The notes under the pieces were generated by a model. The model was not told where the DNA came from. It did no database searches and was given only the letters and a program-made list of their open reading frames with translations. Source: Candidatus Aenigmatarchaeota archaeon (GTDB lineage: Archaea > Aenigmatarchaeota > Aenigmatarchaeia > CG10238-14 > SCSR01). Taken from it: a stretch of DNA of 64,000 nucleotides. The position numbers and the translations under genes are program-made. The DNA lies in contig JAUWZS010000001.1 of the NCBI GenBank assembly GCA_030615205.1, positions 10,019 to 74,018 of the forward strand, in the 5' to 3' direction. Positions 4,273 to 62,357 of this stretch are shown one piece after another (the first letter of the stretch is position 1; each line of letters starts with the position of its first letter).

Positions 4273-4281
4273 TAATTCCAC

Positions 4282-4611
4282 TTACTTGCAAAAACTTCTT
4301 ATCTCTGATACAAGCCGTTGGATGTTCTGTAGCTGCGAGGTTATTGATTCATATTGCATGCGCAAGTTTTCCATTTGCGATAGTACAAGATCTACTTCGG
4401 CTTTTATGCTGCCAGACGTGGTCGATAGTGGCACAGCAGGTGCTCTAGGAAGAGGTGGCAGTGCTGCTGGTGATGGCGCTGTTGGTGTTGGCATTGGCGT
4501 CGGTACTGGTTCTGTATATCTTGGTGGTGGAGCATACGGAGAAGTGCTGGGAAAACTCGGCTCGTCCAGCTTACTCTTCTTTTTTCTTCTAAGCTTATCG
4601 AATATACCCAT
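4282..4611 (-). CDS. hypothetical protein with a proline-rich centre and a C-terminal coiled coil
   Basis: 109-aa ORF. The sequence runs MGIFDKLRRKKK..., then a PxP-rich tract, then a heptad-like tail. An equally long mirror ORF exists on the + strand, so the strand choice is uncertain. Confidence 0.4.
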   Translation of the reverse strand: MGIFDKLRRKKKSKLDEPSFPSTSPYAPPPRYTEPVPTPMPTPTAPSPAALPPLPRAPAVPLSTTSGSIKAEVDLVLSQMENLRMQYESITSQLQNIQRLVSEIRSFCK

Positions 4612-4700
4612 AAAATAAATTGGTGTTCACGGTAAATTAAAGTTATTATTTTCAAAAGTTAACCAAATAAGTTATTATTCATCAAAAGTAAATCCTCATT

Positions 4701-7583: not shown

Positions 7584-9344
7584 ATGGGAAGCGCAATAGC
7601 TACTCTGCTTAAAACACCAGAAGTCAAAGCAGGACATACACCAGATTGGAAAATACAGCCAAATGCTTATACAATAGAAGGAGAGCTTTATCATACATCG
7701 CCACTTAGTGTTAGCACAAACAGCATTGACTTTACATCATTCCCAGGCAAATGTAGTGGGCTTCTTTTCAGTCTTATGTTTTGGCTTAGTAAAGCAGGGC
7801 ACAAAGTTTTAAAAATCGAAGATAAAATGGAGATATCACCGATACATCAACAGTTCTACCAAATAACAATACAACAAAAGCAGACACTCGAAAGGCAGAT
7901 AAAAGAAGGGTTAGCAGGTGTATCAACTTCAATAACAGATTTCGAATTGCTTTTCCACGACTTACGGAAATACAAAGAGTTTATGGATTATTTCATAGGA
8001 AGGGAACATGCGCTGAAAACAAAGGACAACAAGCTGTTGATGAAGACCGAGCAGAGCTTGAAAGCGATATTCATAGACCAGGTGGATGTGCACACAGGTG
8101 AAGGTATTTCGCTGAAGCATATCGCTCCGCGTTGGCCGACAATTATTGCAGACTTTATGCAGATGAAAGACAAGGACACAGATCCGAAGAAGATTGCAAA
8201 AGACTACAAAGTTTCAGAAGCAGAGGGCGTTGTGCTTTCGACCAAAAACAAGCTGTATATCGAATGGAGAGGAACATTTGAAAAAACTGTGAAAGAGCGT
8301 TACCAGCGATTGCTAGGAATGGTACAGTCACGCAAGTTTTCAATCGACGAATACAAAACCATGCTAAAACCATACATAGAGAGGTACAGGTCTATAAAAG
8401 AAATGGGCAGAGAAGAAAGTGGTCGGAAATATCTTAGGGCTATCTCTTGGTTCCGACCAGGTGCGCAGGCAGTATCTTATGATTGGACAACTCTTTGGGC
8501 ATTTAAACCCATGTCACGGCCAGAACTTAGTAGGGTGTCCTACGAAAGAATGGAAGGCGATGAAAGTATATTGAAAATACGTTTCTGCCCGAGTTTTAAG
8601 AACGTAATTAAGAAAAACATAAAATTTCTGAGAGCCAACGAGTTGGGAAAGCTACCCCTATCGCCAACAGGAATAGAGCCTTTGGACAAATGGGTATGGG
8701 CCCTTTACAAGTACATAGAAGATTATTACAACGTCAGGTTCAGCCTGAAAGAATTTCTAGAAATCAGAAACGAGTTTGTAAAAGATAGTAAGTGGGGTGG
8801 CCAGAGCGAACCACATTTCAAATGCTTCGAAACAGACATAATGCGCATAATCTTACGGTTGCCGGATGGCACAGAATTGGAAGATATGACTTTCGCACCG
8901 ATTTTTTTCTTCTTGGATACCCAGAACATGATGCTATTGCGGTTTTTAGAAGTGAAAGCGCAGGAAAAAGCTTTGGAAAATTACATAAACGAAATGCTTG
9001 GCGATACAACAAAAGGCATAAGACTAGAAAAGCTTTCCGAAGAATATGAAAAGCTGTTCCACGTCTACCCTGAAGAAAAATCAGAAAAGGAAAAGGTGGC
9101 TGAAATATCAGCTGCAGAAGATTTGCGAGCAGCCAGGGAAAGAGCGCAAAAGCAAGTAATGAAAGAAGCAACAGAAATGAAAAGACCTTTCAAGTTTTTC
9201 AAAGGTGGGCCATATGAACCAAGATTCGATGATATGGTGACTGGACCGTATTTCGATGATATAGGTGCCAGTATGCAGAAAGTATGGACTTTTTTGAAAG
9301 CGAAGTTCGATGTGCCCGGATTCAAGATATTTGGTGCAAAATAA
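7584..9344 (+). CDS. large hypothetical protein (586 aa), no motif recognised
   Basis: Long uninterrupted ORF with AGGTGA 15 nt upstream of the ATG. The start is uncertain because an internal Met at MEISPIHQQ is possible. It has a helical/charged composition and an acidic-basic C-terminal tail. Confidence 0.7.
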   Translation: MGSAIATLLKTPEVKAGHTPDWKIQPNAYTIEGELYHTSPLSVSTNSIDFTSFPGKCSGLLFSLMFWLSKAGHKVLKIEDKMEISPIHQQFYQITIQQKQTLERQIKEGLAGVSTSITDFELLFHDLRKYKEFMDYFIGREHALKTKDNKLLMKTEQSLKAIFIDQVDVHTGEGISLKHIAPRWPTIIADFMQMKDKDTDPKKIAKDYKVSEAEGVVLSTKNKLYIEWRGTFEKTVKERYQRLLGMVQSRKFSIDEYKTMLKPYIERYRSIKEMGREESGRKYLRAISWFRPGAQAVSYDWTTLWAFKPMSRPELSRVSYERMEGDESILKIRFCPSFKNVIKKNIKFLRANELGKLPLSPTGIEPLDKWVWALYKYIEDYYNVRFSLKEFLEIRNEFVKDSKWGGQSEPHFKCFETDIMRIILRLPDGTELEDMTFAPIFFFLDTQNMMLLRFLEVKAQEKALENYINEMLGDTTKGIRLEKLSEEYEKLFHVYPEEKSEKEKVAEISAAEDLRAARERAQKQVMKEATEMKRPFKFFKGGPYEPRFDDMVTGPYFDDIGASMQKVWTFLKAKFDVPGFKIFGAK

Positions 9345-9390
9345 TTTGTAGAACTATGCCTACAACGCTTACGATGTATTAAATTTTCGA

Positions 9391-20519: not shown

Positions 20520-23625
<3,106 letters not shown>

Positions 23626-24050
23626 CTTGACTAGTTTGATCCTATGGTAGTTTCATAATTAAATGGCTCATTTGAGACAGCTCGATCTTCAACCGCTAGC
23701 CACGCACATCTGTTCGCTTTTGTTTTTGTCCATGCGAACAACCCACTGTACGTTTGTCAGCCAGCGTCAGACGCTTCTGTTATATTCACAGCCTCAACTC
23801 TTCAACCCCGATGTTCAGTCAGGATTTGCATACTCAACAACAGCGCCAATGTCGCTATACATATAACTCATGTTATTGAGAATCCGCTCATACTGCAATC
23901 AAGCAGTGCACCTTTGCCACATAGCATCGCAAGGTGTCCTCTGTCATCATATCGAATCAGAAACAGAACACGCTCATCGCTAAACAAAGGTAAAACTGAG
24001 CGTTCCTACTCTTGCATAGCGACACCGGTAAGAATTATTTTGCACTGAGT

Positions 24051-24059
24051 ATTTATAAA
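24051..24059 (-). promoter_or_regulatory. TATA-like box (TTTATAAAT on the minus strand), candidate 23S promoter
   Basis: It sits about 420 nt upstream of the 23S 5' end, at the point where GC-richer leader-like sequence changes to AT-rich spacer. Confidence 0.3.
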
Positions 24060-24110
24060 GTTTATTGTTTTTGGAGCTTTGCACTTAAACCCCATCTTGC
24101 ACTTTAAGTC

Positions 24111-24160
24111 TGCGGGTTCAAATTCCACCTTGAGCGTCATAAGACTTAAATCTTTAAATT
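24111..24160 (+). repeat. tRNA 3'-half-like repeat unit, copy 1
   Basis: tgcgggttcaaattccaccttgagcgtc followed by acttaaatctttaa. It resembles the T-arm/acceptor of the tRNA at 62274 and the copy at 24992. Confidence 0.5.
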
Positions 24161-24175
24161 CCTATCTAAAAAAAC

Positions 24176-24565
24176 ATGGCACAATCATACTTTTCCAAAT
24201 TTGCAAAAGAACTATTGGATGTTCTTCATAAAAAGGGGTGGAATGTATATAGATCGCTTGATTTGATGAACGCAGAGGACATAATAAGACAGAACTTAGC
24301 TCAGTCTTTAGAGGTAGGTGGAAAATATGTACTTCTTCCTGTTGCAGATAATCCAAAAGACCCGAAACAGGTATTCGATGCATTGGAAAATCTTGCACAA
24401 AAACTTGATAGAAAAATGCCGACCATAACAGTGGGATGTGATTCTTATTCACTAACAGGATTCACGTTGAAGGAAAGTGATGTAAAAATTCATACACCTG
24501 AAGGAACAACCGTCTCTTACCCGATATTCATACGAGCTTTGGATTCTTTGATTCAAACAAAATAA
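24176..24565 (+). CDS. hypothetical protein
   Basis: 129-aa ORF with no motif recognised. Confidence 0.6.
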   Translation: MAQSYFSKFAKELLDVLHKKGWNVYRSLDLMNAEDIIRQNLAQSLEVGGKYVLLPVADNPKDPKQVFDALENLAQKLDRKMPTITVGCDSYSLTGFTLKESDVKIHTPEGTTVSYPIFIRALDSLIQTK

Positions 24566-24647
24566 TGTTGGGCTTTCTTAGCCCAGAGTGGCTTTGCACA
24601 TAAAGTCAAAATCAAGATTAAATATAAATATTGAAAATAAATTCTAA

Positions 24648-24956
24648 TTGATGTTTATGGAATTAAAAGAATTACAAAAATATGTAAGAGATTGGATTAA
24701 TAATGTAGGTGAGACTAATTGGACAAAATGGAATTATTTCTCAAGATTAGTAGAAGAGGTTGGGGAGGTTGGAGAACAGTTATCTTTGAGTGAAGGTGTT
24801 AAAAAACATAAAAAATTTGATAAAGATGTGCTTAAAGAAGAGATTGGTGATGTCCTGTTTGTCTTACTTGCATTATCAAATAAACTGGATATAGATTTAT
24901 CAGAGGCTTTTAATAAAGTTCGTGAAAAACATAAAAGAAAATTTGGCGATGTGTGA
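24648..24956 (+). CDS. MazG-like nucleotide pyrophosphohydrolase
   Basis: EEVGEVGEQL ... EEIGDVLFVLLALSNKLDIDL fits the EExxE...ExxD MazG pattern. The track start is TTG at 24648, and an ATG at 24651 is an alternative. Confidence 0.75.
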   Translation: MMFMELKELQKYVRDWINNVGETNWTKWNYFSRLVEEVGEVGEQLSLSEGVKKHKKFDKDVLKEEIGDVLFVLLALSNKLDIDLSEAFNKVREKHKRKFGDV

Positions 24957-24991
24957 ATATGAAAATAAGGGCAGTATGAATTCTCTTTCAG

Positions 24992-25045
24992 TGGCTTAAA
25001 ATCCTATCCTGGGCGTCTTAAAACTTAAAACTTAAATCTTTAATC
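24992..25045 (+). repeat. tRNA 3'-half-like repeat unit, copy 2
   Basis: tggcttaaaatcctatcctgggcgt followed by cttaaatctttaa. About 17 of 23 positions are identical to gggttcaaatcccatcgctggcg of the tRNA at 62274. Confidence 0.5.
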
Positions 25046-25069
25046 TTAGACTCAGTTATAGGTTAATAA

Positions 25070-25522
25070 TCAACTTGAATAATCTAACTTTTGTCTTTCT
25101 TCTTCAGAAATGTAGCCTTTCTTTTTAGCCCAACTCAATAAGGATAAGTTATGAATTACACCTGGTGGTCCTCTATCAAGTAATTTTAATGCTTCATGAT
25201 AAGTTTTTCCAAGAGACATATAGTAAGCCGCGCCTATAGCAACACTTCTGCTCGTTCCCGCTTCACAACAGACTAAAACTTTTCCTTTATCAATATATTT
25301 GTTAATGAATTCGATTGCAAGATCAAAAGCGTAATCAGAAATATAGTCATCGTCATATAGTTGCATTTCTAAGCAAGGTTTACCATCTCTTACTGTTTCC
25401 TCGCCTTTTCCATTTAAACAATTAATAACCGCGGCAGATTCGTTATAAGGAGAGGATTTTGTGTAGACCAAATCATCGAATGTCCCTATAACAATTTTTT
25501 TAGATTCCAAATTTTCTGACAT
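25070..25522 (-). CDS. dual-specificity (Cys-based) protein phosphatase
   Basis: The CX5R active site is VLVCCEAGTSRSVAIGAAYYM. Confidence 0.8.
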   Translation of the reverse strand: MSENLESKKIVIGTFDDLVYTKSSPYNESAAVINCLNGKGEETVRDGKPCLEMQLYDDDYISDYAFDLAIEFINKYIDKGKVLVCCEAGTSRSVAIGAAYYMSLGKTYHEALKLLDRGPPGVIHNLSLLSWAKKKGYISEEERQKLDYSS

Positions 25523-25592
25523 AGTTATTCAACTTACATTAAAAATATTTAATAATATGTTTATCATTTATTGAGCCCACAAAATTGAGGTG

Positions 25593-25617
25593 TTGTATCA
25601 ATTCTCATGCTGGGCGT
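25593..25617 (+). repeat. tRNA 3'-end-like fragment, copy 3
   Basis: ttgtatcaattctcatgctggGcgt compared with catcgctggcgt of the tRNA at 62274. Confidence 0.35.
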
Positions 25618-25658
25618 TTGAAACACTTTAATTCGGATAAAATAATCAATAAACTGTA

Positions 25659-25952
25659 TCATGCCATTTCTTGATTTTTCCCTAGTGCATGCTTGTACGT
25701 TTCGCGTCTTAATATAGCACTAGCTAATTTTGTTATTTCATTGTAGAATGGAGATGTACCACCACCAGTTAGAAACTCATTAGAAGCTGTTTCTGGATCT
25801 GAATAAATTTTAACAGCTTTAAGCAAAGACTCCCTTACAAAATCAGCACCATATCTAAGATTAAGTATCTTTATTCCATTCAGTATCTTTCTCTTTTCTA
25901 TAGACTCTATTCTCTCCAAATTCGCACGAATTTGAGGTATATCAATTATCAT
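25659..25952 (-). CDS. hypothetical protein
   Basis: 97-aa ORF with no motif recognised. Confidence 0.55.
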   Translation of the reverse strand: MIIDIPQIRANLERIESIEKRKILNGIKILNLRYGADFVRESLLKAVKIYSDPETASNEFLTGGGTSPFYNEITKLASAILRRETYKHALGKNQEMA

Positions 25953-26088
25953 TTGTTACGCCTCGTATAACTACTCTATAGTGACAATATATAAAGATTT
26001 CGGCAATGGCTTATATACGTTAACAGAAAGGCCTAAAAACAAATAGATACTCTCAACTGTAGAAGAAATCACTGTGCGCTGTAAAAAA

Positions 26089-26196
26089 CTAAAGTTTTAT
26101 TGTGCCCCTTGCCATCGTATGGGATTCTGCAACGTGTTTTTCTAGGTCAGCTCTGGTATCAAAAGTTGAATCACAAAACACACATTGTTCTGCCAT
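26089..26196 (-). CDS. 35-aa C2H2 zinc-finger mini-protein
   Basis: Hand translation: MAEQCVFCDSTFDTRADLEKHVAESHTMARGTIKL (CxxC-x12-HxxxxH). It is below the ORF-track cut-off. Confidence 0.45.
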   Translation of the reverse strand: MAEQCVFCDSTFDTRADLEKHVAESHTMARGTIKL

Positions 26197-26254
26197 GGCT
26201 CTCGCTACTTTATTAAAGGATGCTGAAAGATAAAAAGATTTGCGTATTGAAAAG

Positions 26255-26326
26255 TGGACCGACCGGGGCTCGAACCCGGAGCCTCTGCCTTGCAGGGACA
26301 GCGATCTACCATTGATCTATCGGCCC
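26255..26326 (-). tRNA. tRNA-Ala (UGC)
   Basis: Cloverleaf folded by hand, with a G3:U70 pair and A73. The anticodon stem is CTGTC/GGCAG and the loop is CCTGCAA, which places C rather than U at position 33. Confidence 0.85.
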
Positions 26327-26377
26327 ATGAATTATTATTTGTTATGACAAGTTATTTAAATTAACTTATCTTTTTTA

Positions 26378-26746
26378 TTACATCTTTTTTATTTCACCTT
26401 TAGAGGAAATAATTAATGGTCTAGATTCTGTTAAAGCTCTAGTGACTTTTTCTCTTGCACTTTCCAATAATCTCCACACTGTTCCACGCGAGGTCTCCAT
26501 CTTCTTTGCGACTTGTTCTTGTTTTAATTTTTCTAAATCAGTTAATCTCAGTACTTCGTATTCAGGATAAGTCAGCTCGATTGGTTGTGGATTTTTCATA
26601 GGAAGTGGCCTGAATTGTTTAGCATGTGGTATTTCTGATAAATATAAATCACCAAAAGGTCTTCCTGGACCTTCGCGTCTTAACGCCCACCTCCAACCTC
26701 TACCCCTTCCTCGCCCTCTTCCACGTCCTCTCCTTGGTCTTGGCAT
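26378..26746 (-). CDS. DUF134-family putative DNA-binding protein with an RG-repeat N-terminus
   Basis: MPRPRRGRGRGRGRGRGWRW... is followed by LTYPEYEVLRLTDLEKLKQEQVAKKMETSRGTVWRLLESAREKV (sigma-70 region-4-like HTH). The start is taken at the MPRPR Met, not the track start at 26791. Confidence 0.75.
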   Translation of the reverse strand: MPRPRRGRGRGRGRGRGWRWALRREGPGRPFGDLYLSEIPHAKQFRPLPMKNPQPIELTYPEYEVLRLTDLEKLKQEQVAKKMETSRGTVWRLLESAREKVTRALTESRPLIISSKGEIKKM

Positions 26747-26882
26747 AATAAAATAATGGAAATCGATAAATATAAATATTAGCATATGCACATAATTATT
26801 GTGTGTTATTGCACGTAATTAATAGTGTACAATAACACAAAAATAAAATAATAAAATAAAAATAGAAATGGAGGTGAAAAAT

Positions 26883-27170
26883 ATGCCAGGATTTGATAGA
26901 ACAGGCCCAAGAGGAGAAGGACCTTTAACTGGACGTGGTCTTGGACCATGCGGAAGAGGCTTAGGTTTTAGACGAGGTTTTGGTAGAGGCTTCGGTCGAG
27001 GACGTGGATTTGGATTCAGGCGAGCGTATGCGTATGATTATGGAGATGTTGCTCCAGTTGCACCAGCTTTGACAAAAGAACAGGAAAAAACTATGCTGGA
27101 AAGCGAGATGAAAATATTGCAGGAAGATCTCGAAGCTATAAAGAAAAGAATTAAGGAACTGGAAAAATAA
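26883..27170 (+). CDS. DUF5320-like protein with an RGG/FG-rich centre and a C-terminal coiled coil
   Basis: MPGFDRTGPRGEGPLTGRGLGPCGRGLGFRRGFGRGFGRGRGFGFRR... GGAGGTG lies 6 nt upstream. The track start at 26868 would include this SD. Confidence 0.7.
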   Translation: MPGFDRTGPRGEGPLTGRGLGPCGRGLGFRRGFGRGFGRGRGFGFRRAYAYDYGDVAPVAPALTKEQEKTMLESEMKILQEDLEAIKKRIKELEK

Positions 27171-27203
27171 GATTAGGCTGAAAAAAAAGAAGAGGTGAAA
27201 AAA

Positions 27204-27368
27204 ATGCCAAATGGTAGAGGAGGTATGAGAGGTTTTGCAATGGGACCAGATGGAGAATGTATATGCACTGATCCAAAATGTGGTTATACTATGTCACACG
27301 AAAGAGCAAAACCATGTTACGAAATGAAATGCCCTAAATGCGGAAGTTCTATGGTAAGAAAAAGTTAA
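27204..27368 (+). CDS. 54-aa zinc-ribbon protein with a DUF5320-like N-terminus
   Basis: Hand translation: MPNGRGGMRGFAMGPDGECICTDPKCGYTMSHERAKPCYEMKCPKCGSSMVRKS. GAGGTG lies upstream. It is below the ORF-track cut-off. Confidence 0.6.
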   Translation: MPNGRGGMRGFAMGPDGECICTDPKCGYTMSHERAKPCYEMKCPKCGSSMVRKS

Positions 27369-27441
27369 GACTAGGAGTAACGTAATTTTCTTTCGACCGT
27401 TCGTATTGATGCCTGAGGTAGAAACCCAACACACAAATATT

Positions 27442-29150
<1,709 letters not shown>

Positions 29151-30867: not shown

Positions 30868-30877
30868 ATTATTTGAT

Positions 30878-31016
30878 GCTGGTGGTGGGATTTGAACCCA
30901 CGACCTCCGCGAATCACCTTTTATCTTTGTATTTCATTCGGCTGCTCTCGAAACAACCGTCAACGCTCATAAAAGTTTATGAGCACGGCGTTATAGCCAG
31001 ACTAAACTACACCAGC
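30878..31016 (-). tRNA. tRNA with CAU anticodon (elongator Met or Ile2) carrying a canonical-position intron of about 65 nt
   Basis: Acceptor GCTGGTG/CACCAGC, anticodon stem CCGTG/CGCGG, and loop CTCATA followed by the intron. The intron begins with a sequence complementary to the anticodon region (ctcataaacttttatgag). Confidence 0.85.
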
Positions 31017-46019: not shown

Positions 46020-46112
46020 TGCGGCTGGCGGGATTTGAACCCGCGTTGCGAGCTTTCTCCGCTTTTGCTCAGCATGGGAAGCTCGAGTCTTACCAGACTG
46101 GACCACAACCGC
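46020..46112 (-). tRNA. tRNA-Gly (CCC) with a canonical-position intron of about 20 nt
   Basis: Acceptor GCGGTTG/CAGCCGC, A73, and anticodon stem CGAGC/GCTCG. The loop is TTCCCA, then the intron tgctgagcaaaagcggagaa, then A. Confidence 0.85.
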
Positions 46113-54029: not shown

Positions 54030-56138
54030 ATGACTACTAACATAATAATAACCGAAAAACCAGACGCCTCGAGAAAAATAGCGGAGGCTCTTTCCGGAAA
54101 ATACGATAAATCTCTAAAGAAAAAAGAAAAACGAAGAGCATACTGGTACGAATTCAGAAAAGGAAAGAACAAATTCTTTATAGTTCCAGCTGTAGGCCAT
54201 GTATTCGCGCTTGACACAGTAAAAGATGGTAAGGGTTGGAGCTATCCGACTTTTAAAACCCAATGGGTGCCCAGCTTTCAGAAAAAAGGATCGGAATTCT
54301 CTGAAAAATATTACAGAAACATCGAAGATGTCTTATCAAAAATATCAGAAAATGATTCAAAGGCTAATTTTATCATTGCCACAGATTATGACAGAGAAGG
54401 CAGCGTGATTGGGTATAACATTCTCAGATTTTTAGGAAAAAGAGATGATGCTGAGCGCATGAAGTTCTCCACACTCACAAAAGATGAACTAATAGAATCT
54501 TATGAAACCCGCTCTAAACATCTGGATTTTGGACAAATCGAATCCGGGCTCACACGGGTCTATTTGGATTTTTATTGGGGCATCAACCTGACACGCGCAC
54601 TAACACTTGCAATGAAAAGCGTAGCTGACAGGGGATTCGCAATCCTGTCAACAGGCCGCGTGCAAGGACCAACATTGGCTATGCTGCTTGAGAAAGAGCT
54701 GGAGGTTCGCCAATTCAGACCTAAACCATTCTGGCAACTGGAAGCAATAATCAAAATAAATAAAGCAGAGTTCGTTGCAACATATGAAAAAGAGAGAATA
54801 TGGGAAAAAGAGGACGCTGTGAGCATATACAAAGCGTGTAAGGCCCGTGATGCAAAAGCGATTGTAAAAAACATAAAAAAACGAAAGTACAAACAAAAAC
54901 CGCCTGTTCCATTCAACACAACAGACATGCAATCCGAAGCATATACACAATTCAAATATTCGCCAAAGCAGACACTAAGCATTGTTGAAAGCCTGTACCA
55001 AGCCGGAGCAATATCGTACCCCCGTTCGTCATCGCAAAAGCTGCCGCCTAGTATAAACTACAAACGAATCCTTCAAGCACTTGCAAAGCTTAAGCTGTAC
55101 GAAGCATTCGCAAAAGAATTATTGAAAAAATCCAAGCTCATTCCAAACGAAGGCAAACGCACAGATCTAGCACATCCAGCAATATATCCTACATTTGAAC
55201 CGCCCGCGCTCGCAAAACTAACCGGACAACAAAAAAGAATGTATGATTTAATTGTCCGGCGATTCATAGCTGTGTTCGCAAAACACGCACTCCGCGAAAG
55301 CATCACCGTAGACCTGGACATAGAAAACAATAAATTCAGACTCAATGGCAAAACAACAATCGAACCCGGGTGGACAAAATACTATGGAAAATATTTGGCA
55401 TTTGAAGAACAGCAGCTACCAGACCTAAAAGTCGGCGATGAGCTGGATATAAAGAAAATTGATATGTTCGAGAAAGAAACGCAACCGCCTGGACGTTTCA
55501 GCCAAGGTTCGATATTAAAAGAAATGGAAAAGCATGGCATCGGAACGCGTGCCACTCGCGCTGAAATCTTGCAAACACTCTACAACCGCAAATACATAAC
55601 AGGCAAAAGCATAAACGTAACAAAGCTCGGAGAGACTGTAACAACTGTACTGAAAAAACATTGTCCTCGAATACTCAGCGAAGAACTCACGCGACGATTT
55701 GAAGAAGAAATGGAAGAAGTCTACAACAGCAAGAAAAAACGCGAGCAAGTTGTCAAAGAAGCTAAAAACATATTAATAGAAACTCTCAGCGAATTCAAAA
55801 ACAACGAAAAAGAAATCGGTAAACAACTGCTTGACGGCTTGATCGAATCGAGAAAAGAAGAGTATAGAATAGGCGTATGTCCTAAATGCAGCAGTGAATT
55901 GAGAATAATAGTTTCCAAACGTACTAGAAAACGTTTCGTTGGTTGTAGCAGTTATCCTGAATGCAAAACAGCATTTCCACTTCCTCAGAGAGGATTTATA
56001 ACAAAACTCAACACAGCCTGCAAAGACTGCGGACTGCCAATGATACAAATCAAGCGAAAAGGTAGGCGGCCATATCGTATGTGCATAAATCATGAATGCA
56101 AATCAAAGGAAAATTGGGGAAAGAAAAAGAAAAAATAA
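54030..56138 (+). CDS. topA: type IA DNA topoisomerase (TopA/Topo III-like) with C-terminal zinc ribbons
   Basis: Toprim motifs IIITEKPDASRKIA and ATDYDREGS, the catalytic Tyr in GAISYPRSSS, and CPKCSS...CSSYPEC and C..C...C.H ribbons. Confidence 0.95.
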   Translation: MTTNIIITEKPDASRKIAEALSGKYDKSLKKKEKRRAYWYEFRKGKNKFFIVPAVGHVFALDTVKDGKGWSYPTFKTQWVPSFQKKGSEFSEKYYRNIEDVLSKISENDSKANFIIATDYDREGSVIGYNILRFLGKRDDAERMKFSTLTKDELIESYETRSKHLDFGQIESGLTRVYLDFYWGINLTRALTLAMKSVADRGFAILSTGRVQGPTLAMLLEKELEVRQFRPKPFWQLEAIIKINKAEFVATYEKERIWEKEDAVSIYKACKARDAKAIVKNIKKRKYKQKPPVPFNTTDMQSEAYTQFKYSPKQTLSIVESLYQAGAISYPRSSSQKLPPSINYKRILQALAKLKLYEAFAKELLKKSKLIPNEGKRTDLAHPAIYPTFEPPALAKLTGQQKRMYDLIVRRFIAVFAKHALRESITVDLDIENNKFRLNGKTTIEPGWTKYYGKYLAFEEQQLPDLKVGDELDIKKIDMFEKETQPPGRFSQGSILKEMEKHGIGTRATRAEILQTLYNRKYITGKSINVTKLGETVTTVLKKHCPRILSEELTRRFEEEMEEVYNSKKKREQVVKEAKNILIETLSEFKNNEKEIGKQLLDGLIESRKEEYRIGVCPKCSSELRIIVSKRTRKRFVGCSSYPECKTAFPLPQRGFITKLNTACKDCGLPMIQIKRKGRRPYRMCINHECKSKENWGKKKKK

Positions 56139-56169
56139 ATTTATTAGTTCTAAAAATCCAATTCTAATC

Positions 56170-56412
56170 ATGGTAAAGCGTAAGAGATCTGTGAAGAAAT
56201 TGAAAACTAGAAATAATATAACAATAAAATTGTTGCCGCTGTTTATAATAACCGTTTGCATAGTATTCTCGTTCTTGTTTACTGTTATGATGGTACCATT
56301 AGGTAACGTAACAGCAGATATAAAATCCCTATTTCTGATGCTTCTGGTCGTTAGCACAACAGTCGCTTCAGCAGTTTCGATAATATTCTATACCTTCTTT
56401 TTAAAGAAGTAG
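56170..56412 (+). CDS. small two-TM membrane protein with a basic N-terminus
   Basis: MVKRKRSVKKLKTRNN is followed by two hydrophobic helices. The internal Met is preferred over the track start at 56092, which overlaps topA. Confidence 0.5.
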   Translation: MVKRKRSVKKLKTRNNITIKLLPLFIITVCIVFSFLFTVMMVPLGNVTADIKSLFLMLLVVSTTVASAVSIIFYTFFLKK

Positions 56413-56422
56413 ATCCGATAAG

Positions 56423-56452
56423 TTAACAGAACCAAAAACCGTGTTCTGTTAA
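56423..56452. repeat. 30-nt hairpin element, copy 1 (TTAACAGAAC-N10-GTTCTGTTAA)
   Basis: The 10-bp arms are perfect and the spacer is caaaaaccgt. A near-identical copy lies at 59133-59162. Confidence 0.9.
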
Positions 56453-56653
56453 TTTGAGGGGTTCTGGATGAACTGTTAACTGCGGGGCTTTTGCACTATG
56501 ACTTAGTCCAATTTGGAATGCTCATCTTTATAAATAATCATACACCATAACTTACTAACATAATTTAAACTCCAACAGAAAGAAACTTGTGTTGTTCTAA
56601 CTCACGAACAGCGTTTTCTGAAGTTGGATAATAATTAGTTGGAGGTATATTTA

Positions 56654-57631
56654 ATGAGTTTAAGAGTTCGTAACAAAGGATTTGAAGTTCACAGAACCTT
56701 AAAAGGACAGTTCTGTGGCAGAGTTGTCGATATAAAAATTGATGGTGTTACCATAGAAACACCAAAAACAGTCCCAAGCAAAAAAGAGCTTGAATATTTT
56801 TCTCAAGCTGATAGGCGAACAGCAGATTTGTCTGTAGTTCAATATGTTACACAAATGAGACATTTTGGAGGATTCCAAAGTTCTGCAGACCAGACAAGAG
56901 AAAAACTGTTATATGAATCGTTTCTTCGAGCGAACCAAGGTAGCATTGTAGATTTCTTTCTCCAATATCCACACCGTTTTAATTTGACTAACAGACAACA
57001 AGCTATGGCTATGGATTTACAAAACGACACTGTCTCAAAATTTGTTTCTCACTTTGAACAAAATAGAAATCAGAAAGCAGATGTTTTCGAAAAGGAAATC
57101 ATATTGCTAAGGAAAACATACAACGACAAGATATTTACCCCGAGCGTTCATATGAAAACAGAAAAGGAGGGACTCATAAGAAAAAAGGTTAAGGTAGTGT
57201 TGAATAACGGTTTTCAGAGAGTGAATGTCATTTACGCTTCAATACTTGAAAACCCATCAAATTGGTTCGCACTTTCTAACTTAATTTATGACAAAGACTT
57301 ATGGGTTAACGTGGTTGGGGTTTTACCACGAATGACAATAAAAGAAAAAACTGCTATGATTCCTTGGACATTCCTCTTTGGAGCTAATACAACATCTTTA
57401 GCTAAAGCTTGGGGTGGTGGTTCAGCGTATCCACGCCATTTAAACAGAGATACATCTTGCTTTGATATAGTGGACAGGAATATTTCATATCCAAAATCAA
57501 GAGCAGAAAATGTTAAAGAAACTGAAATAGTAAGTCAAGATATTAAAAATAGTATATTGCAACAAAACTTATTCAGAAATCTTGTTCGTAACAGAGCAGG
57601 ACTTAGGGATATCATTAACAGACTGCGCTAA
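56654..57631 (+). CDS. hypothetical protein with collinear TGT/DpdA-like (tRNA/DNA-guanine transglycosylase) motifs
   Basis: GGAGGT lies 8 nt upstream of ATG 56654 (the track uses TTG 56639). [28 protein letters not shown] resembles the Tgt N-terminus FEL...GRLVF.[20 protein letters not shown] resembles DSGGFQ, and VVGVLPRMT resembles FDCVLPTR. The Tgt sequences are recalled from memory. Confidence 0.35.
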   Translation: [325 protein letters not shown]

Positions 57632-57912: not shown

Positions 57913-57956
57913 TATTTTTAGTATAAATACTATTTCTACTATTTTTAGTATAAATA
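57913..57956. promoter_or_regulatory. two perfect 17-bp direct repeats (tatttttagtataaata), each containing a TATA-like box
   Basis: The copies lie at 57913-57929 and 57940-57956, in the divergent spacer between 57898(-) and 57991(+). Confidence 0.6.
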
Positions 57957-57990
57957 GTAGATTTAATATACTACGATTTAAATTATAATT

Positions 57991-58568: not shown

Positions 58569-58730
58569 ATGGCTAAGAAATACAATCCATACGAAGCAGC
58601 TGCTCGATATTATAGTCTGACTAAAAAGCTAATAAAAGACCACGATACTAAAATGATGGAACAGTTAGATAATATCAAAACAAGTCTTACCGAGATTAAA
58701 GAAGCTTTGAAAATAGAGCAAAAAGCTTAG
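58569..58730 (+). CDS. 53-aa helical hypothetical protein
   Basis: GGAGGTG lies 9 nt upstream. The translation is MAKKYNPYEAAARYYSLTKKLIKDHDTKMMEQLDNIKTSLTEIKEALKIEQKA. Confidence 0.45.
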   Translation: MAKKYNPYEAAARYYSLTKKLIKDHDTKMMEQLDNIKTSLTEIKEALKIEQKA

Positions 58731-59017
58731 TCTTTAAAGGCGGTTTTGGGGATTGAGACTTCTGTTTCTTTTCCCATACTTCTGAAAATTAATGATATCT
58801 TCTCAGAACTGTTGCTTATGAACAGATATCTATCGGGCTCATCTTTTCGAATTGAAAAACTATCAGCTTCTTTTGATACAACTTTTTCAATTAGCGGGAG
58901 AATTTCAAAATTGATTTGTTCTTCAATCCTCTTAATAATCTGCATAGCTTCAGATGAAGAAATCGGCTTCTCCATCATAGCGTTCTCTTGTTTTTTAAGA
59001 ATTAGGTTGGCACTCAT
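58727..59017 (-). CDS. hypothetical protein
   Basis: 96-aa ORF, convergent with the 53-aa ORF and overlapping it by 4 nt. Confidence 0.5.
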   Translation of the reverse strand: MSANLILKKQENAMMEKPISSSEAMQIIKRIEEQINFEILPLIEKVVSKEADSFSIRKDEPDRYLFISNSSEKISLIFRSMGKETEVSIPKTAFKD

Positions 59018-59132: not shown

Positions 59133-59162
59133 TTAACAGAACATCAAACCGGGTTCTGTTAA
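59133..59162. repeat. 30-nt hairpin element, copy 2 (TTAACAGAAC-N10-GTTCTGTTAA)
   Basis: The arms are the same perfect 10-bp sequences as copy 1. The spacer atcaaaccgg compared with caaaaaccgt indicates direct orientation. Confidence 0.9.
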
Positions 59163-59299: not shown

Positions 59300-59866
59300 A
59301 TGAAAATCGTAGCAGAATATTCTTTTAAGGGTGGGAAAGAATTTATAGAAAAAAATCATTTAGCCGAGCTTAAAGAAATTAAAGAGGTTGTATCTTCAGT
59401 TGATGCACCATCTTGCAAAACAAAGGAAAGTAAAGAAAAAACTATGAAAGGTAGAATGTTGTATTCTCCGATAAAGTTAAATAATATCTTTTTTGATGGG
59501 TTCAAAAAAAGAGGGTGGAATACGGTTAGAATTCAAGTTAATACCACTGTTCCTGAAATAAACAAGACACATAAAGGATTCAGGGAAATCGACATGATAA
59601 AAAATAAATTGGGTGTAGAAATCCAATTTGGAAAGTATGCCTTTATGGTATATAATGTTTCAGCGAAGATGACAATCTTTTCGAAACAAAGTATAATCGA
59701 TTCAGGTGTAGAAATAGTACCTATGTTAAGTTTGGCGAAAGAAATGTCAACTGGTGTATCTTATTTCGAACAGATGAAAACAGATTTGGAGATGAGGGGT
59801 GAAAGTGATATTGATATACCAGTCCTAATTTTGGGCATTGACAAAGATAAATTGAATAAACAATAG
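59300..59866 (+). CDS. BglII/BstYI-family type II restriction endonuclease
   Basis: REIDMIKNKLGVEIQFGKYAF resembles BglII TDIDFGKRDTLVEVQFSNYPF (D-x9-E-x-Q). TGVSYFEQMKTDL resembles SSLYYEQAQNQL, and IDIPVLILGI resembles FDVPIRLVGL. The BglII sequence is recalled from memory. Confidence 0.8.
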   Translation: MKIVAEYSFKGGKEFIEKNHLAELKEIKEVVSSVDAPSCKTKESKEKTMKGRMLYSPIKLNNIFFDGFKKRGWNTVRIQVNTTVPEINKTHKGFREIDMIKNKLGVEIQFGKYAFMVYNVSAKMTIFSKQSIIDSGVEIVPMLSLAKEMSTGVSYFEQMKTDLEMRGESDIDIPVLILGIDKDKLNKQ

Positions 59867-60715
59867 TTACTTCTTTACTTCAAATTTAGTAAAATCTCCA
59901 AGTTTTCTTTGTTCGATATATTTTTTCAATCTGCCCCAAGTAACATCAATATATTTTTTCTTTGTTTCTGCACCTATAACTCTTCTACCTAATCTCAACG
60001 CTACTACGGCGGTAGTTCCAGAACCCAAGAATGGGTCAAATACCCAATCATCTCTTTTAGTAGTAGCTAAAATGATTCTCTCTATAAGAGCTTCAGGATA
60101 TTGAGCAGGATGTAAAGTCTTTTCAGGGATGTTAGCATGTACGTTTGAAATATCCCACACATCGCCAGGATTCTTACCCAAAGGGTGAGACGATACTTTA
60201 CCCTTATTTGGGCCCTTGTAAGCTTTTTTCTTAGGATATAGTTGTGGTACTCGAATATCATCCAAGTTAAAAATATAATTATCAGATTTTGTGAACCATA
60301 ACACAGTTTCATATCTTCCAGAAAGTCTCTTTTTAGCATGTAAACCATGACGGAAATGCCACACGATTCGATTGCGTAATTTCATTCCTAGGTTTTTGAA
60401 AATAGGATATAATAAAGTATCTAGAGGTATTATTTCGCCCTTATTTATATAATTCCCGACTTCCCAACATATACTTCCATTCTCTGCGAGTATTTTGTGG
60501 CATTTATTTATTATTTCTTGATGCCATTTTACATAATCATCTAGACTCATTATTTTTTCATATTCTTTGCCAATATTGTAGGGCGGTGATGTAACTATAA
60601 GAGTAACAAATTCTTTGGGAATTTCTTTCATTAATTCTTTACAATCCCCATGAAAAATTACCAAGTTCACTCTTGGATCAAATGTTTTCGCGACTTTAAT
60701 AGAAGTATTTTTCAT
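59867..60715 (-). CDS. beta-class N4-cytosine/N6-adenine DNA methyltransferase
   Basis: TSPPYNIG (motif IV) lies N-terminal and DPFLGSGTTAVVA (motif I) lies C-terminal. It sits tail-to-tail with the endonuclease gene with no spacer. Confidence 0.9.
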   Translation of the reverse strand: MKNTSIKVAKTFDPRVNLVIFHGDCKELMKEIPKEFVTLIVTSPPYNIGKEYEKIMSLDDYVKWHQEIINKCHKILAENGSICWEVGNYINKGEIIPLDTLLYPIFKNLGMKLRNRIVWHFRHGLHAKKRLSGRYETVLWFTKSDNYIFNLDDIRVPQLYPKKKAYKGPNKGKVSSHPLGKNPGDVWDISNVHANIPEKTLHPAQYPEALIERIILATTKRDDWVFDPFLGSGTTAVVALRLGRRVIGAETKKKYIDVTWGRLKKYIEQRKLGDFTKFEVKK

Positions 60716-60987
60716 TTACGCACCTTTTTATTTTTAGCCAGTTCTTTAAAAGCTTTATCCAACGATTTTAACTTGTACACTCTCTTTCTTGCATCCTTCG
60801 GGTCAAAATTCACTTTCAACCAACCAAGTTTTCTAAGCTCAGAGAGTGCAACGTTGAGCGAACCTTGATTGTCCTTCAAAATCTTCTTAGCAGTCCCAAA
60901 ATCAAACTCTTTAGTCTTGAGTTTAGACCACAATATCGCGTATCTTTTCATTAGCCATCTTGGGAGAGGTTTTGCCATCAAGAACAC
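60712..60987 (-). CDS. winged-helix protein upstream of the methyltransferase (possible R-M controller)
   Basis: 91 aa with FGTAKKILKDNQGSLNVALSELRKLGWLKV. It overlaps the MTase start by 4 nt. Confidence 0.6.
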   Translation of the reverse strand: MFLMAKPLPRWLMKRYAILWSKLKTKEFDFGTAKKILKDNQGSLNVALSELRKLGWLKVNFDPKDARKRVYKLKSLDKAFKELAKNKKVRK

Positions 60988-61029
60988 CTAAGTAATTGCT
61001 AATTATATTAAAAAGGATAAATAAATAGA

Positions 61030-61839
61030 TTACTCTCCATAGGCCAGCAATATCTTATTTATTAGCCCATGTAGTTTTTTCCAGTTTCCAACTCTCTCAG
61101 ATGCGACACTAACAAGATACTTGTAAGCCTCATCTAACCATTTTCGTGCTTTTGAATTTAAAATTACTCTCAAGTACAGGTGATGCTGGCTAATCATATC
61201 ATTACTAAACCTTCGATATACTCCACTAGCTAATTTTTGCTTTTTAATGTGCCAGGCTAGTGGTGCCCTTCTTTCAACCCTTAATACAAGCGAGTTCAGC
61301 TCTTTTAAATTCAAAGATTTTCTCTTGCGTGTTCCTTTAAGGAGCATTAAACTTTTCATGTCTCTTATGCAGCTTACCATATGCGTATCAAAAAACCCTT
61401 TCACAAAAATAGGATTGAATAAGAAGAGTTTTGAATCAATAATAGTATCGTTTAAGACCATCTCTGTAGAATGTGCTCTGCCCTCTGGAGATCCATTCAA
61501 CAAATAATCCTCTCCCAATACATCATATCTGAACCAGTCACCAATTGAATCGGCTTTTAACGTCGGGTGCAGAAGTTCGTGTCCAGTGAGATATGTGAGC
61601 CTATTTATTAATGTTTCTTTCTTACATCTTGGATCGAAGAATAAGGGAGGCTCCAAACATATTTTAACACCTCTGAATTTCTCTGCAGATGATGTTTCAT
61701 AGGCCCACATAGGCAAGTATTCAACCTGTATATTATTTTGGTTGCAGAGAGCTGCAACATTATTTACAATTTCCTTTAAATCTACACCTACTTCTTTTGC
61801 CCAATTTCTGACTAGACTATCTATTAATACTTTATTCAT
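61030..61839 (-). CDS. HExxH putative zinc metallopeptidase (ImmA/IrrE-like context)
   Basis: LTGHELLHPTL. The start is taken at MNKVLIDS (61839), which forms an ATGA overlap with the upstream wHTH gene; the track start is 61914. Confidence 0.55.
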   Translation of the reverse strand: MNKVLIDSLVRNWAKEVGVDLKEIVNNVAALCNQNNIQVEYLPMWAYETSSAEKFRGVKICLEPPLFFDPRCKKETLINRLTYLTGHELLHPTLKADSIGDWFRYDVLGEDYLLNGSPEGRAHSTEMVLNDTIIDSKLFLFNPIFVKGFFDTHMVSCIRDMKSLMLLKGTRKRKSLNLKELNSLVLRVERRAPLAWHIKKQKLASGVYRRFSNDMISQHHLYLRVILNSKARKWLDEAYKYLVSVASERVGNWKKLHGLINKILLAYGE

Positions 61840-62153
61840 TTGGCTTCCCTCTTTCTCTGCTCTAATGTGAAAAGTCTTACCTTCTGCATGTGGTTGAATA
61901 TCACATTTAACCAATCGTAAACTTTTCTATTTAATAGAAAAAGCTTGAATTTGCCTCGTTCTTCCGAATGAAGCAGTCCTAGTCTTTCAAAGTCGTTTAG
62001 TGCTCTATTAAGCGATGCCTGGGGTATTCCAAGTGTGCTATTAATCTCCACGGCCGAAAATCTCTTGTCTGGATGATTTCTGAAGAATTCCAGAACTTTT
62101 TGTTTAGTTCCTGTCCCAAAGAATTGGTCATATTCGTATGTTTTATATTTCAT
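61836..62153 (-). CDS. winged-helix DNA-binding protein
   Basis: KVLEFFRNHPDKRFSAVEINSTLGIPQASLNRALNDFERLGLL. Confidence 0.7.
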   Translation of the reverse strand: MKYKTYEYDQFFGTGTKQKVLEFFRNHPDKRFSAVEINSTLGIPQASLNRALNDFERLGLLHSEERGKFKLFLLNRKVYDWLNVIFNHMQKVRLFTLEQRKREAK

Positions 62154-62273: not shown

Positions 62274-62357
62274 GCCAGTGTGGCCGAACCAGGTAAGGCA
62301 ACCAGTTGCAGGCTGGTATCCTTCGCGGATATGTGGGTTCAAATCCCATCGCTGGCG
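62274..62357 (+). tRNA. class II tRNA (Ser-like body, long variable arm, G73) with an apparent GCA anticodon
   Basis: Acceptor GCCAGTG/CGCTGGC, D region with AACCAGGTA as in the tRNA-Ser at 46989, and a perfect anticodon stem ACCAG/CTGGT. The loop is TTGCAGG, the variable arm is ATCCTTCGCGGATAT, and the T arm is GTGGG-TTCAAAT-CCCAT. Confidence 0.75.

Follow-up and report, generated by a model that had tools for sequence, protein, structure and literature searches.

Here we analyse a stretch of 64,000 nucleotides (nt) from a Candidatus Aenigmatarchaeota archaeon (contig JAUWZS010000001.1, positions 10,019 to 74,018 of the forward strand; hereafter the window) and, within it, a gene whose product is predicted to fold as the (beta/alpha)8 barrel of the tRNA-guanine transglycosylases (TGTs). 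This barrel gene is accompanied by a small partner gene on the opposite strand, with which it shares an overlap of 3' ends. A first-pass annotation had likened the barrel protein to TGT and to DpdA, the TGT-fold protein that inserts 7-deazaguanines into DNA, on account of three sequence motifs; it overlooked the partner gene.

A two-gene module and its sequence family

The gene pair comprises the following features (positions are those of the window).

56641-56646, forward strand: GGAGGT, read from the sequence as resembling a ribosome-binding site, 7 nt 5' of the ATG at 56654
56654-57631, forward strand: barrel gene, an open reading frame (ORF) from the ATG at 56654 to the stop codon ending at 57631, encoding 325 amino acids
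57569-57898, reverse strand: partner gene, encoding a basic protein of 109 amino acids (isoelectric point, pI, 9.5), convergent with the barrel gene, the 3' ends overlapping by 63 nt

The ATG at 56654 is favoured as the start of the barrel gene because the alternative start, a TTG at 56639, lies just 5' of the GGAGGT.

To judge from sequence searches, the barrel family is genuine, conserved, rare and unannotated. A word-indexed search of 5.8 billion proteins returned the barrel protein itself and two homologues at 65-66% identity, and an exhaustive phmmer search of 1.84 billion cluster representatives returned 47 relatives, nearly all of them 310-340 amino acids long and 20-34% identical. Nothing usable was found for the barrel protein in Pfam, NCBIfam, PADLOC, PHROGs or the sequences of the Protein Data Bank (PDB), nor for its relatives in the family libraries, and tblastn of the barrel protein against 50,697 phage records gave no match. 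Scanning 41 family members against Pfam likewise assigned no family, save for chance-level matches and one RsmH methyltransferase chimera. This chimera (P0026, 404 amino acids) has an RsmH/MraW methyltransferase at residues 2-232 (Pfam E = 2e-71) and continues from about residue 227 as the C-terminal half of the barrel family, from strand 5 onward; it could be a fused gene or an artefact of assembly.

In each of the 13 modules for which the flanking sequence sufficed, the partner gene adjoins the barrel gene; the modules are those of the window, L001 and L002 and, in clade B, those of L003 (two copies), L004, L005, L013, L014 and L016-L019. Beside the two close homologues (L001 and L002), the partner protein has counterparts at 59-62% identity in convergent ORFs that overlap the barrel gene; in each clade-B locus retrieved, the barrel gene is followed immediately downstream by an ORF of 107-140 amino acids that is homologous to the partner (blastp E of about 1e-9 to 1e-11). 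When all ORFs of the window and seven related loci were compared with one another, the barrel and partner genes were the only ones common to all. The two also diverge together, with barrel and partner identities of 65% and 62% between the window and L001, about 40% and 32-36% between L003 copy 1 and clade B, and 93% and 85% between L004 and L014. The convergent 3' overlap measures 63-75 nt in the window, L001 and L002, where the overlapping part encodes the variable C-terminal tail of the partner; in clade B the partner is co-directional, at gaps of 54-80 nt or with a 4-nt overlap.

Eleven partner residues are invariant (Y33, R34, K36, C41, C51, C66, K76, F77, K79, H88 and P89) and amount to a Cys3-His set in a frame rich in Lys and Arg; the partners' pI ranges from 8.7 to 9.9. 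The partner has no Pfam match above cutoff and none in NCBIfam, PHROGs, PADLOC or the PDB, and a search for its domain fused to a family member found no such fusion. Taken together, these comparisons indicate that barrel and partner are a self-contained two-gene module in which, in the loci examined, the partner is obligate. A pattern scan of metagenomes returned one short contig.

Upstream of the partner's ATG (57898), on the minus strand, TATTTATACTAAAAATA occurs in two direct copies about 32 nt apart (57915-57969); it holds TTTATA, which resembles a TATA box, and could be a promoter or operator. In L005 the barrel gene is split into two ORFs (8001-8573 and 8649-8978, the N- and C-terminal parts) with the downstream partner intact; the split may reflect a pseudogene or an assembly error, the contig being labelled 7x.

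Predicted fold and candidate active site

The resemblance to TGT that the first-pass annotation saw in the sequence does not rise above chance. The barrel protein has no match to the Pfam TGT profile (PF01702) at E up to 10, and hhalign probabilities stayed below 1% whether the family was compared to E. coli Tgt, to a TGT alignment of 6 sequences or to a phage 9g DpdA alignment of 21 sequences. A full-length alignment at low stringency scored 16.2, a value reached by 19 of 100 column-shuffled controls, and TGT and DpdA hidden Markov models (HMMs) scored family members at noise level; the homology search seeded with phage 9g DpdA recovered only close relatives (at least 70% identity), so that the DpdA profile was not widened.

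The predicted structure gives a different picture. An AlphaFold2 model computed without templates from an alignment of 58 sequences has a mean predicted local distance difference test score (pLDDT) of 96.1 and a predicted template-modelling score (pTM) of 0.94; a first run with 3 sequences (pLDDT 35) was discarded. The modelled chain is laid out as follows.

residues 3-35: N-terminal three-stranded antiparallel sheet (strands 3-14, 19-29 and 32-35), preceding barrel strand 1
eight strand-helix units in strict alternation, the strands lying at about 38-42, 61-67, 98-104, 130-132, 160-166, 189-193, 217-223 and 246-249
residues 261-272: hairpin
then three C-terminal helices

In a Foldseek search of the PDB with this model, the 12 best matches were all TGTs (E 2.1e-9 to 1.6e-6, template-modelling (TM) scores 0.53-0.61), namely Z. 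mobilis TGT (E = 2.1e-9 to 3.9e-7) and mouse QTRT1 (1.8e-7 and 1.6e-6), whereas the best other barrels (BexX, DusC, IGPS and dehydroquinase) started at E = 1.6e-4 with TM scores of about 0.44. No DpdA entry was among the top 50 PDB matches, and in a library of viral models the phage 'queuine tRNA-ribosyltransferases', which are of the DpdA type, reached only E of about 0.01. TGTs carry an N-terminal sheet that acts as a lid, which DpdA lacks (PMC10164549). Because the model has this lid and its PDB matches are TGTs, the label 'TGT-like' is supported and the label 'DpdA-like' of the first-pass annotation is not. At the level of the predicted fold, assignment of the barrel protein to the TGT superfamily is thus supported, and we consider it probable that the protein belongs there.

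A second, independent pointer comes from a divergent subclade. The TGT-type zinc motif is absent from most of the family and, as the first-pass annotation had observed, from the barrel protein of the window, whose only cysteines are C21 and C269. Two members, P0038 and P0049, are divergent, matching a family profile built without them over residues 8-295 (hhalign probability 98.8%, E = 6e-17), and carry a zinc-site-like pattern (C-x3-C-x2-C-x25-H in P0049, C-x2-C-x24-H in P0038) in an insertion between the hairpin that follows strand 8 and the last barrel helix. The zinc site of DpdA reads CXCX2CX22H, with its His in the last barrel helix (PMC10164549), so that the motif of the two proteins matches the TGT/DpdA site in sequence position and spacing. 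The single weak Pfam TGT match among the 41 relatives, which remains below cutoff, falls on the same segment (P0038 residues 309-371, profile positions 289-352 of 357, E = 0.05). From their sequences, P0038 and P0049 look like intermediates that keep an ancestral zinc site, and these forms bear on how the zinc subdomain of TGT evolved. The argument for homology, for which sequence support is absent, accordingly combines the predicted structure with this subclade.

The catalytic aspartates of the superfamily provide a frame for reading the barrel: the general acid/base Asp of strand 3 is D102 in Z. mobilis TGT and D95 in DpdA, and the nucleophile Asp of strand 8 is D280 and D256, respectively. 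Residue equivalences given here derive from strand order and from the non-significant hhalign alignment, not from superposition. All segments lie on the forward strand.

56678-56779: residues 9-42, motif 1 of the first-pass annotation; lid strands and ETP at the start of strand 1; plausible match to the TGT N-terminus
56858-56881: residues 69-76, RHFGGFQS, motif 2; between strand 61-67 and helix 77-93, the block of lowest pLDDT (86)
56939-56971: barrel strand 3, GSIVD100FFLQYP, likely counterpart of TGT PILTDSGGFQ; D100 codon at 56951-56953
57047-57073: end of strand 4 and following loop, S132-H-F-E135-Q-N-R-N-Q140; family consensus SDxExxxNQ
57308-57337: residues 219-228, motif 3; barrel strand 7, topological match to LMGVG of TGT; family consensus WCNVVG
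57371-57415: barrel strand 8, FLFG243ANTTS248LAKAWG; S248 codon at 57395-57397

The three peptides on which the first-pass annotation relied are all present in the product, and the E. coli Tgt strings with which it compared them agree with K-12 tgt for the N-terminus and TDSGGFQ but not for the third, which reads MFDCVMPTR rather than MFDCVLPTR. The matches themselves fare unequally. Motif 1 as a counterpart of the TGT N-terminus is consistent with the predicted three-stranded sheet followed by ETP, whose P37 is conserved in 92% of the family, and the segment is collinear with E. coli Tgt residues 1-31 at low stringency, but the alignment is not statistically significant. Motif 2 had been equated with TDSGGFQ; it reads RNFGAFQN and KRLYLFQN in the 65%-identical homologues, is unconserved across the family too, and falls where strand 2 gives way to helix 2, in a loop or short helix, so its likeness to TDSGGFQ is probably due to chance. 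Motif 3, whose NVVGV had been equated with MFDCV, occupies strand 7, whereas MFDCV occupies strand 8 in TGT. The 'altered catalytic positions' read from motifs 2 and 3 (His-Phe and Val/Gly) are therefore probably wrong, and strand order gives D100 and S248 in their place. There is a general caution here, namely that a correct guess of fold by motif spotting can stand on two wrong matches out of three.

Strand 3 has the family consensus I-x-D-x-x-[LF]-[QY]-[YF], with Asp at position 100 in 32 of 48 full-length members (67%), and in clade B it reads NPILTDITLYY against GPILTDSGGFQ in E. coli Tgt, whose D89 is paired with D100 by hhalign. D100 thus seems, on the model, to be the retained candidate for the general acid/base Asp of TGT. 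At the end of strand 4, where E135 is conserved in 81% and Q140 in 88% of the family (position 133 is Asp in 71% and His in the window protein), E135 is paired with D143 of E. coli Tgt (FDEC) and is a candidate counterpart of the base-recognising Asp of that motif.

For strand 8, S248 is placed at the position of the TGT nucleophile because the invariant G243 (100% conserved) is equated with the G of GIDMFD, and hhalign likewise pairs G243..S248 with G..D264 of E. coli Tgt. Position 248 is Ser in 31, Gly in 11 and Cys in 4 of the 48 members, and among the six commonest residues of each column from 243 to 254 there are only one Asp (at 245) and one Glu (at 250) in all 48. The strand 8 nucleophile Asp of TGT and DpdA thus appears to be absent from the barrel family; the register is uncertain by a few residues, and no other Asp is found in the segment. 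The conserved residues assigned to the putative pocket further include Q123 and G243 (100%), P163 (98%), W204 (96%), Q140 (88%), and N191 and N219 (85%). The barrel protein is itself strongly basic (pI 9.9, net charge +17; family median pI 8.8).

The island and its neighbours

The window is archaeal, with Rfam matches to archaeal large subunit (LSU) ribosomal RNA (rRNA) at 20521-23622 and small subunit (SSU) rRNA at 27573-29149. The barrel gene lies in a stretch of low G+C content (GC) from about 56.0 to 62.0 kb (GC 0.32-0.35, against 0.39-0.41 in the flanks) that ends at a tRNA-Cys gene (62274-62357), and has the following neighbours.

56423-56452: left hairpin repeat, 30 nt, perfect 10-bp stem TTAACAGAAC-N10-GTTCTGTTAA, starting 11 nt after the stop of the ORF at 56092-56412
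59133-59162: right hairpin repeat, between the ORF at 58727-59017 (reverse strand) and the restriction endonuclease gene
59300-59866: BglII-like restriction endonuclease, 1.7 kb downstream of the barrel gene
59867-60715: N4/N6 methyltransferase, convergent, forming a type II restriction-modification (R-M) pair with the BglII-like endonuclease

The R-M neighbour reported by the first-pass annotation is thus borne out. The rest of the low-GC island (59300-62153) also holds a 91-residue winged-helix-like ORF, a 294-residue ORF without a family and a MarR-like ORF of 105 residues, and no integrase or tRNA-derived direct repeat was seen in this part. The statement of the first-pass annotation that the window has no genes for preQ0 synthesis also agrees with our searches (tblastn and HMMs, with bacterial and phage queries only), which found no homologues of folE, queD, queC, queE, tgt or dpdA in the window or in L001-L005 and L013-L015. 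A second copy of the barrel, or a canonical TGT or DpdA, was searched for elsewhere in the window and none was found.

Related loci place the module in similar company. In L003, which lies on a metagenomic contig of 746 kb, genes for AIPR, HNH, TIR, DUF3800 and HNH-methylase proteins flank the module or interleave with it, and two diverged copies of the whole module lie within 5 kb (3334-4628 and 8001-9363; barrels about 40% identical), interleaved with a TIR-domain gene. A Pfam-annotated phage-type integrase lies near the module of L004, an ORF of L014 resembles this integrase (30% identity, E = 1e-7), and an N4/N6 methylase gene lies near the module of L001. No CD-NTase or QueC-like gene was found in any examined locus, and there were no PADLOC matches. 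From this gene content, the module is best described as cargo of variable, low-GC islands of archaeal-type contigs, near integrase, R-M, TIR or AIPR genes.

The 'repeat-bounded cassette' of the first-pass annotation is not established. The 30-nt hairpin repeat is real, its copies standing 2.7 kb apart (0.01 matches expected by chance) and bracketing the module together with three small ORFs, but it is absent from the loci of relatives and the low-GC island extends past it. An interpretation of the hairpins as terminal repeats of a mobile cassette was dropped: the orientation of the flanks is ambiguous, the relatives' loci lack the repeat, and it does not coincide with the compositional island. 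Given this uncertainty, the repeat is not counted as part of the module. Further copies of CTGTTAA(C) occur near the hairpins, at about 56474 and about 59220.

Elsewhere in the window, the SSU and LSU rRNA genes stand about 4 kb apart, with a tRNA-Ala gene and several ORFs of 96-150 amino acids between them (23650-27550; GC 0.33 at 24-26 kb), a spacer content unusual for an rRNA operon. Two Rfam tRNAs, of 140 nt (30877-31016) and 93 nt (46020-46112), presumably contain introns; ARAGORN missed the first.

Readings of the module and known TGT-fold systems

We favour, tentatively and at just under even confidence, a reading in which the barrel protein represents a very divergent branch of the TGT superfamily with a partner of its own and would act on, or read, a nucleic-acid base. 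The barrel would keep a TGT-like, guanine-type pocket built from D100 and E135, which sit at the ends of strands 3 and 4, respectively, and from the conserved polar ring; with the strand 8 nucleophile replaced by Ser or Gly, no covalent Asp-ribose intermediate would form, and classical double-displacement base exchange is unlikely because of this replacement. The most likely activity would be to recognise a guanine-like base flipped out of DNA or RNA, and then either to remove it hydrolytically, as a glycosylase does, or to carry out no chemistry at all. The partner may supply in trans the zinc and the nucleic-acid-binding role of the C-terminal subdomain of TGT and DpdA, and the biological role would lie in conflict between mobile element and host, as defence or counter-defence. 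This mode of action for the pair is possible, and we propose it with more reserve than the reading as a whole. A sharper version, in which the pair is an archaeal defence or counter-defence system that excises or detects guanine or 7-deazaguanine-type bases in invading DNA, is a rather unlikely prediction; if true, it would be the mirror image of DpdA, a TGT pocket attacking modified genomes instead of making them.

Several points weigh against the favoured reading. No sequence-level significance ties the family to TGT or DpdA, and the homology rests on a predicted structure whose TM scores of 0.53-0.61 are modest, with a root mean square deviation (rmsd) of 6-7 Å. The residue equivalences could be off by a few residues, and neither D100, missing in one third of members, nor S248, Gly in one quarter, can, on the family alignment, be universally catalytic. 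A high pI is common in AT-rich genomes. Finally, no more than a few loci tie the module to defence; PADLOC does not contain it, and scanning IMG/VR and the GTDB representative genomes by pattern turned up no copy.

Loss of the nucleophile and of the zinc site, together with obligate pairing with one small protein, would also fit a catalytically dead TGT-fold scaffold or sensor, which binds a base, a nucleotide or its partner and regulates or chaperones without acting on nucleic acid, in a way comparable to QTRT2. QTRT2, the TGT-fold subunit of the eukaryotic TGT that lacks the catalytic nucleophile and works only with a second subunit, is one precedent. Cap10 is the other (bioRxiv 10.1101/2025.04.06.647259). 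Many polar residues at the strand ends are strongly conserved, which is what an active site or a pocket for a specific ligand would lead one to expect, barrel and partner are each strongly basic, Cap10 itself keeps its catalytic Asp and no CD-NTase or QueC-like gene lies nearby; we regard such a scaffold as unlikely.

The absence of sequence similarity to TGT, the modest TM scores and rmsd, and the fact that barrels of the triosephosphate isomerase (TIM) type at large match at E of 1e-4 to 1e-3 could instead suggest a generic TIM-barrel enzyme (a hydrolase, an aldolase or another metabolic enzyme) whose TGT likeness is convergence of fold and whose neighbour is an unrelated regulator. This is quite improbable in view of the five orders of magnitude in E-value that separate TGTs from other barrels among matches of which the 12 best are all TGTs, the predicted TGT-specific N-terminal lid, PILTD at strand 3 in clade B, the TGT-type zinc motif at the right place in the divergent subclade, and the position of the gene in islands rather than in metabolic operons.

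Slightly less probable again is a functional DpdA- or TGT-like transglycosylase that exchanges guanine in DNA or RNA for a host-made 7-deazaguanine by means of non-canonical residues. The TGT fold, D100 and E135 as candidates at the general acid and base-recognition positions and the mobile-island location next to R-M genes would all suit it, and the missing que genes are not decisive, since viruses (phage and archaeal) that encode only DpdA and use host preQ0 exist (PMC6884629). Against it, there is essentially no acidic residue around the nucleophile position of the family, whereas DpdA cannot do without either Asp and every TGT conserves both (PMC10164549); moreover, the zinc site is absent, the N-terminal lid is present, unlike in DpdA, no DpdB-like ATPase lies nearby and DpdA-type models reach no better than E of about 0.01. 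An addiction or toxin-antitoxin-like cassette of two genes, with antisense control exerted by the convergent overlap and a toxic activity to which the enzymatic fold is incidental, would suit a compact module of mobile islands (one of them with two copies) and the 63-75 nt overlap of the window clade, but it is very improbable, as the clade-B genes are co-directional, so that the antisense overlap is not conserved, neither protein resembles known toxins or antitoxins, and a 325-residue barrel is atypical of such systems.

On the favoured reading of a partnered TGT-superfamily branch, the module is a small, two-gene target for asking whether archaeal mobile elements use TGT-type chemistry in genome conflicts, and is suited as well to asking whether the TGT fold can serve for hydrolytic glycosylase activity or for reading modified bases.

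Among known systems, TGT and QTRT1 (PF01702) are the best structural match and share with the barrel protein the (beta/alpha)8 barrel and the N-terminal three-stranded lid. Both also begin strand 1 with ETP, have an Asp close to where strand 3 ends (in the barrel protein D100, a candidate equivalent) and close strand 4 with an acidic residue; most family members, though not the window protein, further share a long last helix bearing a motif of the (S/T)-H-N type. The family differs from TGT in having neither significant sequence similarity to it nor a CxCxxC..H zinc subdomain, in the shortening of the insertions by which TGT holds the anticodon loop, to about 8 residues after strand 3 and about 30 after strand 8, in the replacement of the nucleophile Asp by Ser or Gly, and in being island-borne with a dedicated small partner, whereas TGT is a housekeeping gene. 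QTRT2 resembles the barrel protein as a TGT-fold protein without a nucleophile that is paired with another protein, but it is a full-length, zinc-bearing paralogue that pairs with a catalytic TGT, and no catalytic paralogue was found in the window.

DpdA shares with the barrel protein the predicted membership of the TGT superfamily, mobile-element or defence settings and, in its phage forms, a similar size (about 300-320 residues). It lacks the N-terminal lid, keeps both catalytic Asp and the zinc site, has insertions 1, 2 and 8 and, in its bacterial form, works with the ATPase DpdB (PMC10164549). None of these distinguishing features is seen in the barrel, in which the segment after strand 8 has only about 30 residues. 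As with the tRNA-binding insertions of TGT, those with which DpdA binds DNA correspond in the model to no more than short loops.

Cap10, of the type IV cyclic-oligonucleotide-based antiphage signaling system (CBASS), is a TGT-family barrel whose zinc site and nucleic-acid surfaces have been lost; it is complexed with a partner protein and holds the modified N-terminus of that partner in its TGT pocket, while keeping the base-reading D73, S74 and D122 and the catalytic D248 (bioRxiv 10.1101/2025.04.06.647259). It is encoded with a CD-NTase and the QueC-like Cap9, whereas here the partner is a small Cys3-His protein without detectable relatives and the nucleophile is absent; what Cap10 and the barrel protein would have in common is a zinc-less, TGT-family protein tied to a protein partner in a defence setting. 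To our knowledge, the TGT superfamily comprises five kinds (the bacterial, archaeal and eukaryotic tRNA enzymes, DpdA and Cap10), all of which retain both Asp residues. The addition of a sixth branch, one with a partner, would mean that the base-flipping pocket has been re-used once more, without its nucleophile and with a zinc module that was lost or, hypothetically, handed over to a small partner protein.

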